This document shows, in pieces, positions 1 to 6,533 of a DNA stretch of 6,533 nt. A model generated the notes under the pieces. That model had not been told where the DNA came from and made no database searches. It saw nothing but the letters and a program-made list of their open reading frames with translations. Origin of the DNA: a virus (lineage: Duplodnaviria > Heunggongvirae > Uroviricota > Caudoviricetes); the IMG/VR virus record IMGVR_UViG_2698536437_000003, positions 1 through 6,533 of that record; one strand, given 5' to 3'. Made by a program: the position numbers and the translations under genes. Numbering within the stretch: the first letter of the stretch is position 1; every line of letters starts with the position of its first letter.

Positions 1-81
1 CGCCAATGTTAGACTGAAATTGACGCCTGATGTTGATTATTAATAATCAGCTATGAAGTTTTAATTTGAATACAATGCAAT

Positions 82-270
82 TCACGAGGACTGAAGTTTC
101 TCGCAATTAAAATTTATCAGTTTTACTTTCTGCTCTCTGGAAACGCCTGCTTCTTTTTTACCTGAGAGCATTTTTTCGCATTCTGATTTCGTTAGTTTAG
201 ATTTTGAATATCTTGTCCAGTTAGTAGGAGTGCCACCTTCCTTTTCAATTGTAGCGGTAATTTTATACAT
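82..270 (-). CDS. small hypothetical prophage protein (62 aa), in the position ydaC occupies downstream of ralR in Rac-type prophages
   Basis: ORF-track ORF 82..342 (86 aa) contains an internal ATG at 268-270 preceded by GGAGG with a 5-nt spacer. That ATG overlaps the ralR stop (ATGTATAA) at 263-265. The first 24 codons of the 86-aa ORF overlap ralR in another frame, so the shorter start is preferred. Product not recognised; placement is by synteny only. Confidence 0.5.
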   Translation of the reverse strand: MYKITATIEKEGGTPTNWTRYSKSKLTKSECEKMLSGKKEAGVSREQKVKLINFNCEKLQSS

Positions 271-469
271 GAACGCCTCCATTAATATTTTCAGTGGTTC
301 GTTTATCCCATCTTTCGAGCGCTTCTTTTTCACTTCCACCATAGCCAGTTCGGGATTCGCATCCGTTGCATTTTGCCCGGTAATATCATGAAATGTCTTT
401 CACCGTTACTGATGGACAACCACAAAACGGACATGGTTTAACATCGTCATATCTCAAAGTTTTTGTCAT
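263..469 (-). pseudogene. ralR: ralR/lar restriction-alleviation protein (Lar family zinc ribbon), interrupted by an in-frame TGA at 386-388
   Basis: Minus-strand translation from ATG 467-469 gives MTKTLRYDDVKPCPFCGCPSVTVKDIS-stop-YYRAKCNGCESRTGYGGSEKEALERWDKRTTENINGGVHV-stop (TAA 263-265). The two Cys pairs (CPFCGC ... CNGC) are in one frame on either side of the TGA. This matches my memory of the 64-aa K-12 RalR, which has Gly where the TGA sits. A TTG at 455-457 corresponds to the K-12 start position. Too short to appear in the ORF track. Confidence 0.6.
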
Positions 470-513
470 AAAAACTATCTCACGTTGGCGGTGCATTACA
501 CCGCCTGGCTGAA

Positions 514-1318
514 TTATTCTTCTGAATTATCGATTACACTGTATTCCCCGGTTAATACAGAGGAGTCTGCCGGATCGATTGTCAGTGGTTCCTTTTCATC
601 CATTGATACTGCACGCTGGATTTCAATTGAGACAGGCAGGTATTTAAACAGGCGACGAATAGCCGTTTTTTTTGCCATTTCTTCCCAGTGAGTTACCCAC
701 GGCCCGTTATTACCTGCCTTACTCTGGCTGCGCACCAGTTCAATCTGTTTGCGCGTCATAACTTCAAACTGAGTCCCTCCGTCTTTCAGTCTTGCGACAG
801 CATAGACGTGGGTAAGCATCTTCGTTTTCTCCCGGGCGGTGTATTAACTTTTCATCAAGGCCAAATTCGAAGCTAAACTCGTCACCTTCACGGACAACAC
901 GGGCTGACAGGCTGGCGATTTGACCAGAACGGCGAGCCAGATCAATCATGCCGCGATAGCCAATGATTAGCTGAACGTTCTTTTTACCGCTCTTTTCGTT
1001 TTTATTACCAAAAGGCAGTAAATATGCGTGGCCAAGGGCGCTACCTGGCTCAAGGCCGAGCTGTGAACACTGTACGATTGCACTGACAAAACTCATAGTG
1101 TCACAGTTTCCTAACGCTGGAACGTTACGAATTTCTGTGGTGGCGATACGGATCATACGTTCAGCCGTCATATGGCGTGGAAGAGCTGCTGCCAGTTGCT
1201 CTTTCATTGATGGCTGGTTAATAAAACTAATCACGTCGTTATTTTTAACTGCTGCTGGTGCACGGTTTCCCTGAGTTTTTTGCAGATCGGCTTTTGCGAT
1301 TGGTGGTTGCTTAGTCAT
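514..1318 (-). pseudogene. recT: recT (RecT-family single-strand annealing recombinase) disrupted by a frameshift near 814
   Basis: Two same-strand ORFs in different frames: 764..1375 (real start [13 protein letters not shown]... at ATG 1316-1318) and 514..819 (..THVYAVARLKDGGTQFEVMTRKQIELV..SVIDNSEE). Together they cover about 269 codons, the intact RecT length. The upstream frame runs into ...GENEDA and then nonsense (YPRLCCRKTERRRDSV) to a stop at 764. Only 1 nt (814) separates the last conserved codon of one frame from the first of the other, consistent with roughly a 5-bp deletion. Confidence 0.8.
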
Positions 1319-3983
1319 TTGCATATTCCTTAGCCCAGCGGGGCAGTGATAACGTCTTAATAGCTGGCCATTCATCGGTATTGAGGCAGTCAGCCAGGGT
1401 CCTCAGATTGCGGTGATATTCCTGCTGGCCTGCCAGTTTTGCTTCTTCGCCCATCATGAAAATCTCAACCGGATAACGTCCGCATTCAACAGTTGTGCTG
1501 GCAACCAGAAAAACGAAAGTTGGCAGCACACCAAACTGTGCTTCATAACCGTCACTGTAGAATGCATCCTGAACGTGATAGCGGTAGTCGTAATAAGCCG
1601 TTTTGAATCGTTGAATATCCGCTGTGGTTTTCACGTCCATGATCCAGTGAAATTCAGGAATAATTTTGTCCGGACGGCACCGACACAAAATTCCTGTTTC
1701 CGGATCTTCCCAGTAAATTGATGATTCAGCGTGTCCGGCGCTTTCCACAAGCCATTGACCCAGCGGCAAAGCCATAACGCTCTGATACATGAGTTCAATT
1801 TTCCGGCCTTCTTCGGCAGTGATAACCGTTTTTCCTGTGCTTGCGCATTCCATCAGAAACGCTTTCTCTTCTTCTTTTCCGGCGTTTGTACGGCGGTTAA
1901 ATTCAGGTGCTACGATAAAGCGGTTACTGAATTCTTCCGGTTCAAGTACACGGCAGTGGAAAGCGGTTCCTAAATCGAGCGTTTTTGTCTTTGTGGTGTC
2001 CACAGGGGCATTTTTACGCCACAAATACAGCGCCGGAGTATCAGTAATGTCGTCGAGCTGAGACTTACTGACACCGGGACCCGCGTGGTAATTCTCATTC
2101 GAAATTCCGTAATAAATACCAGGCTCTATGTCTCCTGCGATTACGGGATCTGCGACTTCGCCAGTTTCATCACTGCAATCGCGATGCAGATCGCTGCCAG
2201 CATTCTCATTGTGCGGATGTTCAGGGCCTTCCATTTCCTCCGGCTCTTTTTCCTGAGATTCATCCAGATTTTCTTCATTAAAGGTTTCCTGATACGTTGC
2301 GTCGCCCATCACCGCACCACAGTCAGGGCAGTTATCCCCGCCAGTCTGACCGCAGGCATTGCAGACTATTTCCGGTTTCTGTTGCACTACTGGTTCAGGT
2401 TGTTTCACATCCGGGCTGGTTTTTACAGTTTCTGGCGTGTTTTGTTCCGTTTCTGGCTGGTTCTGGTACACAGAGTCGCGAGTCTGGATCCCCTTTACCC
2501 ATTTCGGATCGTTCGGGTCGCTAATCCCTTCAACGAACTCACCACGCGAAGCAGCCAGTAATTTGTCTGCATCGACAGGATTTTTGGGCGGAATGTTTTT
2601 CCGTGTTTCATGGAGTTCTGCCCGCAGTTTCTGATATTTTTCATCAACAGAATTTACCTGTGACTGAGCATCCAGCGGCTGCGTGTCCTGATGATGTTCA
2701 GTTGCATCCGGTTCCACTGTTTCAGCCGTTGCCTGTTCATCTGCCATTGCGCAATATGGTTGCGGTTTTTCTTCATCATCCTGTTTTTCTTCTTCTGTTA
2801 CACGCTGCGGCATCGGGGCAGAGGAACGACCGCAGGCAATATCCACGATTTCCGGATCAGGGTTGGCATGATCAGTTTCAGTCAGTACTTTGTTCAGATA
2901 TTCAGTGACGTGCGCGGGGATGACCTCGATCCCAATTGGTGCTTCTTTCACGGACGCAACCACGATGGCGCGGGAATAATCCAGCCCGCCAGGCATGGTG
3001 ATGAATTTGTCGCGGAAAACAGAAAAGGGCGGTTTATTTTCAGCGATAATTTCCTCAATGCGTTTAGCGTGTGCCGGATGAAGGTTATAGATGTCCACGT
3101 CCATTGAACGGGCCAGAATGCCAGTGGCTACGTCGCGGGCCAGCGACGCCTGATCATGAACGAAACCTTCGCCGCGATCGGTAAGGTTCCCGCCGCCTGC
3201 ATTAGCACCGGAATCTGTGCGAGTGATGCGTGAAACACGATTCCCTTTTCGCCATTCTTTTGTTAGAAGACCGCGATCAATGTGTTCGGTGTCCAGCCAG
3301 GCTGAAATGAAATTCTTAAATTCATAGGGCTGATGTTTTTTCGTGATAGAGAAAACTGCCTTAATTGCATCAGTCAGGCGGAGCAGGGCGGCATTATCCA
3401 GAGTTGTCGGTTCTGCCATGCCGCGTATGGCCAACAGCAGATTCTGGACATAGCTGTTTTCCTGATCCATCTCAAGAGCGGTAATGTGTTCGCGTTGTTT
3501 ACGGGTGGCATGATGCAGGTATTTCCGATCCCCGGCCGCATACGTAAAAATGTGCAGAAGACGCTGTGTGAACCGCAAAGTGGCTACAGAGACTTCGCAA
3601 TCCTGGCAATCCCCGTGGGCGTCTGCCTGCGCGTTTTCTTCCAGGCCTCCCGCCAGTTCTTTGGTTTCCTGAGCATTATCCTGGTGGTGAACGTCGTCTG
3701 GTGCTGCTCCCGGTTTTAGTTCCCAGGTCATGGAGTCTTTGCTGAGTTGATAGCGTTCACTCCAGGTAAAATCGATCTCACCTTCAGGGGGCAGGTCATT
3801 AACGACAGGAAAATTCGTGGCAACAGCTTTAAAATAGTTGCTCAGTTTTTTACCTGACTTAACGATCAGGTAGTCCAGAGTGGCACAGGTTGATTCAAAA
3901 TCGTCGCTTGCCCACAGGACGACGTCAGGCTCACCGGATGATTTTTTCGCTTTCCGTAAAAGGAAGAGTGGTTTTGTGCTCAT
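1311..3983 (-). CDS. recE: exodeoxyribonuclease VIII (RecE), 890 aa, apparently intact
   Basis: Continuous 890-codon ORF. The C-terminal third (..[24 protein letters not shown].. EDPETG.. IMDVKT ..) matches the RecE nuclease domain with a PD-(D/E)XK-like D..E/D..D-x-K arrangement. The central region is acidic/low-complexity with a CNAC-x7-CPDC motif. The stop TAA (1311-1313) overlaps the recT start ATG (1316-1318) as ATGACTAA. Confidence 0.9.
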
Positions 3984-4054
3984 TGTTTTTTAACCTCAAC
4001 TCAGATTAAAATTCGTTTTGTTCAGTGAATGATCTTGCCGGATACACACTGTTC

Positions 4055-4079
4055 ATAGCCTGCGCCATACGCAGGCTAT
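4055..4079. other. perfect 10-bp inverted repeat (ATAGCCTGCG-ccata-CGCAGGCTAT) in the racC-recE intergenic region
   Basis: Arms 4055-4064 and 4070-4079 are exact reverse complements with a 5-nt loop. It lies 6 nt downstream of the racC stop and about 70 nt upstream of the recE start. On the plus strand it is followed by TTCTTTC; on the minus (mRNA) strand no U-tract follows. Confidence 0.4.
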
Positions 4080-4084
4080 TTCTT

Positions 4085-4360
4085 TCAGATTTCACCGTTT
4101 AATTTCATTGCAATCAGAGTTGCCAGAAATCCGGCTTTTTTTTCTGCGGGCAGATTCTTTCCGATGTGAACCAGGCACATTTTTGTGACACCTTCATCAA
4201 GTGTTTTTACGTTGCCTGATGGACCATCGATATCAACCACAGTGAATGGGGTTTCTTTATTTTTTGTTTTAATTACGTAGCCAATGCGCTTTCCTTCCAG
4301 ATTCACCTCGTGAACAATGTCATCGGTAGTTACAACAGTGGTTTCATAATTGGTAATCAT
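4085..4360 (-). CDS. racC: RacC-like small prophage protein (91 aa)
   Basis: ORF-track ORF 4085..4408. The internal ATG at 4358-4360 is preceded by GGAGA with a 5-nt spacer and gives MITNYETTVVTTDD..., 91 aa. Size and position immediately upstream of recE match K-12 racC. Identification is by synteny and size, not verified by alignment. Confidence 0.7.
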   Translation of the reverse strand: MITNYETTVVTTDDIVHEVNLEGKRIGYVIKTKNKETPFTVVDIDGPSGNVKTLDEGVTKMCLVHIGKNLPAEKKAGFLATLIAMKLNGEI

Positions 4361-4434
4361 GTTTTTCTCCTGAATTAAGGTTGAGCGAATCCCTGCCATT
4401 TCTGGCATAAATTCAGTTTCGAATAGTCAATTAA

Positions 4435-4611
4435 TTAAAGTTCGTGTGCCATCTGGTCTTTTTCGGCACAAGCTTCACTGCAATATTTTCTCGGTTCGTC
4501 TTTTGATAAAGTCCCGTGCATGAAGTGAAGCATTCTTTCTATAGTTTTGCTTTCTTCAACGTCTTTTTTGCAAAGGTGGTAAGCACATTTTATTTTCTTA
4601 GTCGTCACCAT
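4435..4611 (-). CDS. ydaE: YdaE-like small Cys-containing (putative zinc-binding) protein, 58 aa
   Basis: Hand translation of the minus strand: [58 protein letters not shown], stop TAA 4435-4437. Cys at C-x4-C and C-x3-C. Too short for the ORF track. The start ATG 4609-4611 overlaps the kilR stop (4605-4607). Sits between kilR and racC as ydaE does in Rac. Confidence 0.6.
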
Positions 4612-4826
4612 GACTCCGCCTTTACAGGTAAACCATCACGACCGAGGAAGACTTTAATCATGCAGTCAGTAATGCATGTTTTTGTAGTTAGGCTACGAAT
4701 ATAAAGTTTTCGCTTTTTAATATTGTTTGCCGAGGCAATATATGTCCGGCCTTCATGAAGAACATAATCGCCAGGAGTCACGCACTGGCGTGGTATTTCA
4801 TCGGTTCCGAAGTGATGAGCAATCAT
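4605..4826 (-). CDS. kilR: KilR-like cell-division inhibitor, 73 aa
   Basis: 73-aa ORF ([14 protein letters not shown]...). ATG 4824-4826 is preceded by AGGAG with a 7-nt spacer. Size and position upstream of ydaE/racC/recE match K-12 kilR. Function is taken from K-12, not shown here. Confidence 0.7.
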
Positions 4827-4872
4827 AATTATCTCCTTAATAAATTTGTCGTATTAAGAAAATTCCAGAAAA

Positions 4873-5721
4873 CTATTTAATACTCAGCAACTGCTCGACG
4901 GTCATGTTTTTAATTGCGCTTCGGTTTACAAGAGTCCAGCCCTGTTTCTCCAGATAAAGGCGGAAAGTGTCTAGGGTACAGACGAGAGCGTCATCAGGAA
5001 CGGTTTCAGTGAATTCGACGTTGCCGAATTTGTCGAAGCGAACAACCAGAGTGCGCCCATCGCCCGGAATGATTTTGTTTGTGGGAGTGGTATTATTCTG
5101 GCGTAGTTCTGCTTCCATGCGGTCGAACTCAGCGATGTAGGCCTCTTTGAATGCAGCGGCTTTTTTGCCAGTGAAGCCCATCACCAGGAAAACGAAGCCG
5201 TTTTTGGTGATCTGGTAGGCATTATAGGAATTGCCGCGATGTTCGAATTTAACCCGCGAAAAGTTGCTGGTTAAAAAATATTCAGAGCATTCGAGGGATT
5301 CTATTTTTTGGACAACATGATGATGTTGCTTGCCAAAAAACTCTGCGATCGCAATGGATGTAGTTACAGCGCGACCGTTTTCGATGGTTACGTCAGGGTG
5401 AGAAAGGGTAGGGATAGTAGTCATAATGACAGCCTCGATAGTCAGTTTAAATAACTCACCACCAAGGTTTTCCACGACCATAAGGGTGGTGAGACGTACA
5501 GGGGTGGAAATACCGGCGACTACCGAAACCGGCCAGCTTTGCGGCTGCCCTGCACGCCCCACCATAATCTGAATGTGGCTGTGCATTACGCATAAAAAAA
5601 CCGCCTGAGCGCGGTTATGCGCGGTAATCATCATCGGGTTTCCACGCCCGGCACCCGTTTTATAAGGTGCAGGTGCACTATAATTCCACCCGTTCTGGTT
5701 TTCAATAGCTACATTCAACAT
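4873..5721 (-). CDS. Rha-family phage regulatory protein; the full 282-codon ORF is given but the real start may be the internal ATG at 5422-5424 (183 aa)
   Basis: Residues about 100-200 (MTTIPTLSHPDVTIENGRAVTTSIAIAEFFGKQHHHVVQKIESL...NFSRVKFEHRGNSYNAYQITKNGFVFLVMGFTGKKAAAFKEAYIAEFDRME) fit the Rha (Phage_pRha) domain pattern, which is normally N-terminal. ATG 5721 has an AGGTGA SD with a 6-nt spacer; ATG 5424 has GAGG with an 8-nt spacer. The upstream 99 codons have no recognisable domain and contain a terminator-like hairpin. Confidence 0.6.
   Translation of the reverse strand: MLNVAIENQNGWNYSAPAPYKTGAGRGNPMMITAHNRAQAVFLCVMHSHIQIMVGRAGQPQSWPVSVVAGISTPVRLTTLMVVENLGGELFKLTIEAVIMTTIPTLSHPDVTIENGRAVTTSIAIAEFFGKQHHHVVQKIESLECSEYFLTSNFSRVKFEHRGNSYNAYQITKNGFVFLVMGFTGKKAAAFKEAYIAEFDRMEAELRQNNTTPTNKIIPGDGRTLVVRFDKFGNVEFTETVPDDALVCTLDTFRLYLEKQGWTLVNRSAIKNMTVEQLLSIK
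5594..5616 (-). terminator. weak terminator-like hairpin (AACCGC-GCUCAG-GCGGUU followed by U5-7), inside the 5' extension of the Rha ORF
   Basis: Plus strand 5594-5616 is AAAAAAACCGCCTGAGCGCGGTT. On the minus transcript this is a 6-bp stem (4 GC pairs), a 6-nt loop, then a U-run. The stem is short, so this may be chance. Confidence 0.25.
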
Positions 5722-5904
5722 TTTCTCTCACCTTTCATCACCGAAGTGAACTTTGTTGATGCGGTGCCTGGTGCCTCCAGGTGACGTTAACCAGTTAACA
5801 ATTAACGCCGGATATTTCACCCATAACTCTGCTACGAAGGACAATAGCTTTTTAACTGTTCCGCGTGCGCTTAGCCGCATTCACCGCATCACAAAATTCA
5901 CTTT

Positions 5905-5951
5905 AAAAAGGGCGGACATCAGTCGAACTTCAAGAAAAAACTGATGCCGCC
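5905..5951 (-). terminator. candidate rho-independent terminator on the minus strand: 12-bp stem with one bulge, followed by CUUUUU
   Basis: Arms 5911-5923 (GGCGGACATCAGT) and 5940-5951 (ACTGATGCCGCC) are reverse complements apart from one bulged A, with a 16-nt loop. On the minus transcript the stem is followed by CUUUUUAAAG (plus 5901-5910). Confidence 0.45.
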
Positions 5952-6105
5952 AAGACTACACACAGCAGTGTTGTTATTCACAACCGGAGGCGCACTCCCA
6001 CCATTTAAATTTGACAGACAAGACCGACTCTTTATGGATACCGGAAATGCGCCTTCGTGTTATGCCCGGTTTTATTTCACCACCTCCGGGCTTTGGTGGC
6101 CTCGG

Positions 6106-6210
6106 CTATACCAAGCTTTTGGTATACGTCATGGCGGTGAACGTTCCATCCTGGTTGGGGAACACGCCACACACTAGGGATTCGTTGTTGCCGAGGTCGA
6201 TTTTTTGCAT
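6106..6210 (-). CDS. small hypothetical ORF (34 aa), in the position of ydaF in Rac; possibly truncated
   Basis: Hand translation: MQKIDLGNNESLVCGVFPNQDGTFTAMTYTKSLV, stop TAG 6106-6108. ATG 6208-6210 lies 10 nt after the stop of the upstream ydaG-like ORF, with no clear SD. Not verified by homology. Confidence 0.3.
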   Translation of the reverse strand: MQKIDLGNNESLVCGVFPNQDGTFTAMTYTKSLV

Positions 6211-6220
6211 TTTGCGAATC

Positions 6221-6355
6221 TCACATCTTGTTGCTGCATATAGCGGCTTCTGCCTGCCAGAGATCCCAGTCGTTGCTGCGTAGAGCCTGTACAGCTTGGC
6301 TGTAAGTGATACCGCAACAATCCATCAAATACTGAACTACTTCGTAATGCACCAT
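6221..6355 (-). CDS. small prophage protein (44 aa), ydaG-like by size and position
   Basis: Hand translation: MVHYEVVQYLMDCCGITYSQAVQALRSNDWDLWQAEAAICSNKM, stop TGA 6221-6223. ATG 6353-6355 is preceded by AGGGAGAG about 7 nt upstream. The 44-aa length matches my memory of K-12 YdaG; sequence identity not verified. Confidence 0.5.
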   Translation of the reverse strand: MVHYEVVQYLMDCCGITYSQAVQALRSNDWDLWQAEAAICSNKM

Positions 6356-6399
6356 TTTATCTCTCCCTTTAACGCCGGGTGGCGGAACTAAAACCTACA

Positions 6400-6533
6400 G
6401 CGCCGTGCTGCTTCTGTAATAATATTAGTTATGTTCATATTAATGATCAACACAAATATGCATTTCGTTGATAAAAATGTACTATCCTAATGAAATTTTT
6501 AGTGTTTTTTTGATAAAAAGTAAGGCGGGGGCG
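6400..6533. promoter_or_regulatory. AT-rich intergenic region with an exact 10-bp direct repeat TTGATAAAAA (6468-6477 and 6510-6519); candidate promoter/operator region
   Basis: No ORF can enter from the right edge on the minus strand for more than about 30 codons (stops in all three frames by 6447-6489). TTGATA (6468-6473) resembles a -35 element, with TGAAAT 17 nt downstream (6491-6496) as a weak -10. No repressor gene is visible inside the window. Confidence 0.3.

Follow-up and report, generated by a model that had tools for sequence, protein, structure and literature searches.

The three described systems closest to the locus analysed here are immI of phages P1 and P7, the immunity region of P4 and the isrK region of Gifsy-1. 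The locus itself is a 907-bp segment that holds a promoter, two RNA genes and a gene of the Rha family, and it lies in a Rac-like prophage sequence of 6,533 nucleotides (IMG/VR virus record IMGVR_UViG_2698536437_000003, positions 1 to 6,533), the whole of which we will refer to as the window. For P1, the curated record lists promoters, a1, b1, c4, a2, b2, icd and ant, with b2 as the site at which translation of icd-ant is repressed; in the same record, Ant antagonises C1 and exists as two in-frame proteins (Ant1/Ant2). RNase P reportedly frees the C4 RNA of P1 from its precursor, and blocked translation is said to result in Rho-dependent polarity or termination. In P4, the CI RNA works mainly by premature termination of transcription before the replication genes (PMC4825925, PMC10111431). 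Experiments with Gifsy-1 have documented terminator read-through, IsrK-dependent translation of anrP and prophage induction by AnrP, as well as translation from an AUG within the 5' stem of C4 that is needed for full activation of anrP (PMC4825925). It was already noted in 2023 that the C4 and isrK profiles detect relatives of CI and seqA within genes of the 'Bro network' (PMC10111431).

Two RNA genes ahead of a Rha-family gene

The segment 4837-5743 is likely a self-contained antirepressor cassette gated by an antisense RNA, of the P1 c4 / P4 CI / Gifsy-1 isrK type, set in the early-left operon of a Rac-like prophage between a KilS/DicF-like leader and kilR. Rfam finds both C4 and isrK on the strand of the Rha gene and in the canonical order. 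The features on which this reading rests are as follows (aa, amino acids; ORF, open reading frame).

4837-5743, minus strand: 907-bp cassette of promoter, IsrK, C4 and Rha (blastn against K-12, junction alignment)
5705-5677, minus strand: predicted sigma-70-type promoter, TTGAAA-17 nt-TATAGT (promoter scan, 10/12 matches)
5721-5425, minus strand: apparently non-genic N-terminal extension of a 282-aa ORF, 99 codons, with a Phage_ASH match (codon statistics, Rfam overlap)
5670-5594, minus strand: leader small RNA of IsrK / P4-seqA type (Rfam isrK, 62.7 bits, gathering score 50)
5645-5639, minus strand: C4 target site a1 (GUGGAAA), in the IsrK loop (complementarity to a')
5630-5622, minus strand: C4 target site b1 (UGAUUACCG) (complementarity to b')
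5616-5594, minus strand: predicted intrinsic terminator of the leader (terminator scan, hit at 5616-5599)
5569-5482, minus strand: C4-type antisense RNA (Rfam C4, RF01695, 73.1 bits, gathering score 45)
5529-5517, minus strand: C4 loop b' (GUUUCGGUAGUCG), complementary to b1 and b2
5510-5504, minus strand: single-stranded a' of C4 (UUUCCAC), complementary to a1 and a2
5475-5432, minus strand: target region from a2 to b2, including the Rha Shine-Dalgarno sequence (complementarity)
5475-5469, minus strand: target site a2 (GUGGAAA), just after C4 (complementarity to a')
5444-5432, minus strand: target site b2 (UGACUAUCGAGGC), including the Shine-Dalgarno GAGG at 5436-5433 (complementarity to b')
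5424-4873, minus strand: Rha gene, 183 aa (MTTIPTLSHPDV...) (Pfam, TIGR02681, codon periodicity, homologue starts)

The promoter falls inside the 282-aa ORF that a mechanical ORF list gives for 4873-5721 on the minus strand, downstream of its ATG at 5721. Some 7 nt separate its end from the isrK match, and the transcription start, predicted near 5670, is the first base of that match. The -35 and -10 elements occupy the same alignment columns in eight to nine phages, in flanking sequence that differs, and a distant blastn search, which matched 170 of 50,697 phage records, shows homology beginning at about 5669-5672. Inspection by eye, with no formal scan made, found no LexA box near the promoter.

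The predicted minimum-free-energy fold of the C4 RNA (-45.2 kcal/mol, z score -4.98) has the shape of RF01695, a long basal stem around two hairpins. We aligned nine sequences, namely the window, the Shiga-toxin (Stx) phages carrying Stx2a, Stx1a and Stx2c, PhiR40_1, ST64B, cdtI, a Yersinia phage and phiV10. Throughout this alignment 94.3% of the cells in the C4 stems pair, as against 38-46% when the partners are slid, and 12 pairs carry changes on both sides; the covariation score observed was reached by 0 of 500 shuffles.

The specificity elements match their targets closely. All seven positions of a' form Watson-Crick pairs with a1, and again with a2 (7/7 each), and b' forms a 9-bp helix with b1 and a 13-pair helix with b2 (nine Watson-Crick and four G-U pairs). 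The latter covers the Rha Shine-Dalgarno sequence, which lies 8 nt before the ATG at 5424. Among the nine phages, changes in a1, a' and a2 go together, as do those in b1, b' and b2, with at least five and at least six alleles, respectively; the a alleles include GUGGAAA, UUGCUAC, UUGGCGU, UCGCAG and UUGGAAC. Cognate helices contain 6-11 Watson-Crick pairs, except at one b' site of the Yersinia phage (four pairs), and non-cognate combinations mostly contain 2-6; phages that share an allele, and a few other combinations such as the window b' on cdtI, equal the cognates. The alleles also reassort, as the window joins the a allele of PhiR40_1 and ST64B to the b allele of the Stx2a phage. Taken at the level of sequence, these modular a and b alleles hint at an immunity code that reassorts and that Stx phages share, which could matter for prophage cross-induction. 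The Stx2c phage, for its part, joins the a allele of cdtI to the b allele of ST64B.

A local hairpin is also predicted to sequester the Rha Shine-Dalgarno sequence (z score -3.96). For its 5' arm (GGUGGUGAG), the 3' strand of the C4 basal stem is a possible other partner, which recalls the alternative structures described for Gifsy-1.

Start of the Rha gene and the Ash segment

An earlier note on this DNA, made from the sequence and its ORFs, had taken the minus-strand ORF for a Rha-family protein of 282 aa. The family was correctly recognised: a hidden Markov model search of the ORF with Pfam finds Phage_pRha (PF09669) over aa 120-203 at 91.6-92 bits (cutoff 29.9), and TIGR02681 of NCBIfam matches at 86.8 bits (cutoff 45.95). 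The length was not. From codon-position statistics, domain limits and homologues of 183-184 aa, we place the start at ATG 5424, and the Rha gene is on this evidence the last 183 codons of the ORF, with the pRha domain at aa 21-104 of the shorter protein. A homologue search returns mostly calls of 281-283 aa; it also returns proteins of 183-184 aa with this very Met as their start, and in one case an unrelated leader precedes the gene.

The codon-position test used six sequences. From the transcription start to ATG 5424, the substitution rates at the three codon positions are 0.296, 0.304 and 0.307, and the variable columns number 48/80, 50/81 and 44/81 (p=0.61). Over the next ~340 nt, within the Rha coding sequence, the rates are 0.235, 0.183 and 0.445 and the variable columns 42/104, 37/103 and 82/102 (p=2e-11).

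Residues 14-109 of the 282-aa ORF score 66.8 bits against Phage_ASH (PF10554; cutoff 26), and these residues coincide with the Rfam C4 and isrK matches on the same strand. The upstream frame is open in seven of the nine aligned phages and interrupted by stops in the Yersinia phage and phiV10. In P4, the obsolete 'cI gene product' coding sequence (CDS) hits Phage_ASH exactly over the CI RNA gene (8168-8584 of the P4 locus, L012). Because the segment shows no codon periodicity, its frame is broken in three relatives and the P4 match lies over the CI RNA, the Ash part of the 282-aa ORF is, as judged from sequence, a translated promoter plus RNA genes. PF10554 seems to consist of translated IsrK/seqA and C4/CI RNA genes, as do PHROGs 995, 821, 6928 and 3960 in their N-terminal parts. 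Recent papers go on treating Ash as a protein domain without known function (PMC8951638). In ST64B (sb41), cdtI (orf44), the Stx1a phage ('Ant') and PhiR40_1 ('Rha protein'), the annotated CDSs are 340-385 aa long; they reach ~230-360 bp upstream of the IsrK promoter and so combine in one call the antirepressor, the RNA genes and an ORF that precedes them.

A functional Rha extended at its N terminus could be made in addition, either of 230 aa from AUG 5565 or of 282 aa by read-through from upstream, much as P1 makes two in-frame Ant proteins. AUG 5565 lies in the 5' stem of C4, 47 codons upstream of Rha and in frame with it, with no stop between; it is the equivalent of the orf45 start of Gifsy-1, which is translated and without which anrP is not fully activated (PMC4825925). 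Most of the aligned phages have this frame open, as said, and one homologue (P0021) is called at 230 aa. Nevertheless, we hold such dual coding to be improbable. The three codon positions of the extension evolve at equal rates, AUG 5565 is buried in the very stable basal stem of C4, and the Rha orthologue found behind an sRNA-Xcc1-type leader starts at the Met of the 183-aa form. The frame relation of the upstream ORF differs as well, being +1 with an ATGA overlap in Gifsy-1 and in frame here.

The Rha protein

The C-terminal ~80 aa of the 183-aa Rha form a variable domain. In tblastn searches, homology among phages usually stops near residue 107, and the C-terminal domain would therefore be a swappable module. 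The earlier note had proposed that these 80 residues be classified by profile search, and this succeeded in part: they match phrog_25059, a family of unknown function, and weakly phrog_2379 (E 2e-7), the family of Gifsy-1 AnrP (AnrP itself, E 3e-98), although structure searches, given below, came back empty. The N-terminal domains of Rha and AnrP both match the antirepressor PHROGs 373 and 63, and Pfam calls that of AnrP ORF6N. The matches to PHROGs 373, 63 and 2379, together with the position behind C4, make a role as antirepressor or early regulator the most likely one for Rha. In an AlphaFold2 model built from a shallow nine-sequence alignment, the predicted local distance difference test score (pLDDT) is 61 for the protein as a whole and under 50 in most of the C-terminal domain. 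Rha was also considered as defence cargo; PADLOC gave no match for it, and this candidate was dropped.

Proposed mechanism

By analogy with P1, P4 and Gifsy-1, the arrangement suggests the following course of events. The promoter at 5705-5677 would initiate a transcript near 5670, and most transcripts would end at the intrinsic terminator, yielding an RNA of ~77 nt of the IsrK/seqA type that bears a1 and b1. Transcripts that read through would contain C4, then a2/b2 and then the 183-aa Rha gene. In a lysogen, a' and b' of C4 would pair with a2 and b2 and block the Shine-Dalgarno sequence within b2, leaving Rha untranslated; the short leader RNA, with its a1 and b1, would compete for C4 or remodel the long transcript and thereby turn Rha translation on, a switch of the kind that experiments demonstrated in Gifsy-1. 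Rha may then antagonise a CI-type repressor, either RacR or the repressor of a co-resident prophage. The terminator scan predicts no terminator between Rha and kilR, and activation may therefore extend further, with read-through past Rha also feeding kilR-ydaE-racC-recE. We infer the processing of the RNAs, repression and antirepression in vivo, the target of Rha and the read-through into kilR.

Several points weigh against this interpretation. Transcription start, processing and repression are predictions at this locus, and the antirepressor role is read from family and context. The Rfam model c4-a1b1 reaches 24.6 bits over 5683-5631, below its gathering score of 46.7, the window has no Rfam match to isrJ at E<=1, and the ORF list holds no icd-like ORF between C4 and Rha. 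By BLASTP, Rha has no similarity to P1 Ant1 (E 22) and a marginal one, at the C terminus only, to AnrP (E 0.014). The C-terminal domain retrieves nothing from the PDB with Foldseek at E<0.1, nor with phmmer. Furthermore, the coupling mechanism of Gifsy-1 cannot apply unchanged, because the AUG equivalent to that of orf45 is here fused in frame to Rha and its frame does not end at the Rha start. Finally, the cassette could be unused, because its host prophage has damaged recT, ralR and ydaF.

Taken to its end, this last point would make the cassette an inert remnant, a decaying passenger of a cryptic prophage that regulates nothing now. Rac is generally cryptic, recT in the window is frameshifted, ralR appears interrupted by an internal stop, ydaF is truncated, and the Rha|kilR junction occurs in only 116 of 5,426 complete E. 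coli genomes. We give such decay little chance, as promoter, terminator, C4 fold, both target pairs in their full complementarity, Shine-Dalgarno sequence and ORF are all intact, and the coding sequence is under purifying selection among relatives. Moreover, nine genomes that differ in serotype share the block at 99.9-100% identity, and coverage of 4873-6105 reaches at least 80% in 379 genomes.

Position relative to K-12 Rac

The predicted antisense-gated cassette has no counterpart in K-12, whose Rac prophage has 8 bp in place of 4837-5743. A blastn comparison of the window with K-12 yields four collinear blocks. Those at window positions 1-3296 and 3687-4836 extend to the kilR start, 5744-6112 matches the kilR leader of K-12 at ~89% identity, and 6115-6391 matches ydaF and ydaG. 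A four-way alignment of the window, K-12, E. coli A30 and O157 F3113 resolves the junctions to the single base and places the cassette between the conserved leader and the ribosome-binding site of kilR, directly upstream of that gene. At ~6113, about 600 bp of K-12, with sieB and the final 19 codons of ydaF, give way to a few bases. The two differences from K-12 are thus separated by ~370 bp. The further features of this side of the window are:

5898-5752, minus strand: STnc100-like structured segment (Rfam STnc100, 40.6 bits, below the gathering score of 47, E 1.5e-7)
6001-5905, minus strand: homologue of the KilS small RNA (sRNA), in the 5' untranslated region of kilR (maps to K-12 kilS, b4833, 1,418,405-1,418,502)
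6106-6210, minus strand: truncated ydaF (DUF1391) (Pfam, tblastn, comparison with O157 F3113 and K-12)

The gene order that the earlier note had given for K-12 Rac proved correct, for tblastn with the K-12 proteins finds recT, recE, racC, ydaE and kilR to one side of the locus and, beyond its other end, ydaF and ydaG, and in K-12 sieB does lie on the opposite strand between the two sets. Its statement that sieB is missing here was likewise borne out: K-12 SieB finds no homologue in the window by tblastn, the best match (E 0.58) being inside recE and outside the kilR-ydaF region. Two of its proposals did not survive. It had placed Rha in the sieB position of one variable cargo slot, but the cassette lies ~370 bp away, and the Rac variant of E. 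coli A30, with the order ydaG-ydaF-sieB-leader-Rha, has both genes. Since one Rac variant bears Rha and sieB together, the Rha cassette beside kilR and the loss of sieB with the 3' end of ydaF are two independent differences and not a single swap; the region is variable, yet without a single cargo slot. The note had further described about 380 bp with no confident gene, but 5722-6105 is the conserved leader of kilR, with a KilS homologue in it.

Among the 5,426 complete E. coli genomes, 1,820 have the uninterrupted leader|kilR junction of K-12, and the K-12 leader|sieB junction is found in 1,369 of the ~1,770 genomes that bear the leader. The ydaF gene retained in the window keeps 32 of the 51 K-12 codons and marks the junction at which sieB and the ydaF 3' end are missing. 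Nine complete genomes match the window at 99.9-100% identity over 3900-6533 except at ~6105-6115, where they hold 92 extra bp, having ~96 bp where the window has 4 bp (AAGC); the junction reads AAGCTT. This deletion at the ydaF junction is common to no complete E. coli genome among the top matches listed.

The KilS homologue is syntenic with kilS of K-12 and ~93% identical to it over ~98 nt, with few mismatches and one 1-nt gap, and its predicted fold has a z score of -3.46. KilS, a prediction from RIL-seq that northern blotting verified, is an Hfq-associated sRNA from the 5' untranslated region of kilR, likely with its own promoter; the paper that names it does not mention DicF (PMC8175672). 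The 3' half of the homologue (5964-5910) scores 42.8 bits (E 3.7e-8) against the Rfam DicF model (RF00039; gathering score 48). By sequence this half is a DicF-like RNA, which we do not call DicF because the score is below the Rfam gathering threshold. KilS of K-12 and the homologue here both have this DicF-like 3' half (UUGGCGGCAUCAGUUUU... CCGCCCUUUUU). The STnc100-like segment is kept in K-12, A30 and O157 F3113 and bears a CACCUGGAGGCACCAGGCACC hairpin.

Two small ORFs of the leader, 5728-5880 on the minus strand and 5944-6177 on the plus strand, have no match in Pfam or PADLOC, and K-12 annotates the leader as non-coding; they were rejected as genes. A 'DicB fragment' called by PGAP at the equivalent place in A30 found no support either.

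The initial picture as a whole, in which a 282-aa Rha regulator and ~380 bp of non-functional spacer fill the sieB cargo slot of K-12, is very improbable: it can claim 282 open codons behind a plausible Shine-Dalgarno sequence at ATG 5721, a RefSeq protein (WP_000935601.1) that corresponds to exactly this ORF, a majority of homologues called at 281-283 aa, a PHROG (995) that spans the full length and the missing sieB, but a promoter and two RNA genes significant in Rfam lie across the first 99 codons, the extension is without codon periodicity, the Yersinia phage, phiV10 and Gifsy-1 have its frame closed or shifted, the supposed spacer is a conserved leader with a KilS homologue, and cassette and sieB loss fall at different points, with A30 possessing both genes.

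Neighbouring genes in the window

The recT gene (514-1375, minus strand) is split by a frameshift near 815-816, and residues 1-168 and 170-269 of K-12 RecT match the window in different frames at 98-99% identity; recT is intact in O157:H7 F3113, a close relative. The RalA antitoxin sRNA is intact at 86-264 on the plus strand (Rfam, 218 bits). The toxin gene ralR (266-457, minus strand) appears interrupted, as only short ORF pieces are present, and the O157 F3113 record gives ralR as a pseudogene with an internal stop. RecE (1311-3983) has 890 aa here and 866 in K-12, with an internal block at 3297-3686 that does not align to K-12 DNA; in O157:H7 F3113, recE is interrupted by IS1203.

Possible consequences

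Cassette-bearing Rac-like prophages occur in cattle-associated and Shiga-toxin-producing E. coli, and the C4 RNA of Rac may cross-talk with co-resident Shiga-toxin prophages, an idea that we consider unlikely. The b'/b2 allele of the window is that of the Stx2a-converting phage Stx2_131990, with b2 identical and b' different by one terminal base, the a allele matches PhiR40_1 and ST64B-type phages, and carrier genomes hold 4-8 partial copies of the region. If the idea were true, C4/IsrK of Rac could partly repress or de-repress the antirepressor of the Stx2a phage, or the reverse. A 'dead' prophage would then be linked to induction of an Stx phage and, via read-through, to division arrest by KilR. 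Irrespective of cross-talk, the cassette puts a predicted antisense-gated antirepressor directly upstream of the FtsZ inhibitor gene kilR and of recET.

For annotation, RefSeq and most databases call a 282-aa Rha protein at this locus and no RNA, and about one-third of that ORF is, on our reading, a promoter and two RNA genes. Annotation of proteins only misses the putative immunity switch, which annotation with Rfam would find. Phage_ASH and parts of several PHROGs seem to stem from the same over-call.

Comparison with known systems

The order of elements in immI of P1, that is promoter, a1, b1, C4, a2, b2 and first ORF, is the same as in the window, with similar spacings and specificity elements of 7-9 nt, and in both cases b2 abuts a GAGG Shine-Dalgarno sequence. 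P1 and P7 immI also share the logic of the cassette, in which antisense RNA and target come from one promoter and the output is an antirepressor (predicted in our case). Unlike in P1, Rha follows directly, without icd, and is not related to Ant1 by BLASTP; the leader ends in an intrinsic terminator and is predicted to yield a discrete IsrK-type sRNA; no C1 operator was identified; and the host is a lambdoid Rac prophage as opposed to the plasmid prophage P1.

The P4 region (PLE-seqA-CI-seqB/seqC) contains isrK (= seqA) and C4 (= CI) at almost equal scores. There, too, the RNA genes lie under a protein annotation, obsolete or over-long, that matches Phage_ASH. Unlike in P4, the gene downstream is a Rha antirepressor (by prediction), with b2 over its ribosome-binding site.

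In Gifsy-1 as well, isrK precedes C4 among the Rfam matches, which around anrP also include isrJ. The product is likewise a two-domain antirepressor-type protein of ~185 aa whose Shine-Dalgarno sequence overlaps b2, as is the case here. The C-terminal domain of AnrP is weakly related to that of Rha at the level of a PHROG (phrog_2379), whereas its N-terminal domain is ORF6N as against pRha. The orf45 (STnc1160) of Gifsy-1 runs for 45 codons in the +1 frame and ends at an ATGA shared with the anrP start; here the corresponding frame is that of Rha and has no stop. The neighbours differ as well, antQ in Gifsy-1 as opposed to kilR and KilS here.

With regard to K-12 Rac and the dicF of Qin, the ~89% identity of 5744-6112 to the K-12 leader and the fit of the KilS 3' hairpin to the DicF model tie the flank of the cassette to a known region. 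In K-12, the leader runs straight into kilR, and here the cassette is interposed.

Over its 184 aa, the Rha orthologue of E. coli GCA_900450475.1 (locus L013) shows 79% identity to the Rha of the window; both begin with the same Met, and the orthologue lies next to ydaE/recE in Rac-like surroundings. It is preceded by an RNA of the sRNA-Xcc1 family (RF02221, 67.4 bits; 2230-2500 of that locus) and has neither C4 nor isrK. The leader contains repeated CAGUUAAG sites, upstream and one at the Shine-Dalgarno sequence, which points to the same regulatory logic served by another RNA family; a PhdYeFM/ParE toxin-antitoxin pair lies just upstream. A system of this kind is well known and embodies no new principle. 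What is new, relative to the records examined, is the placement of the cassette between the KilS leader and kilR, and an Ash segment without a coding signature.

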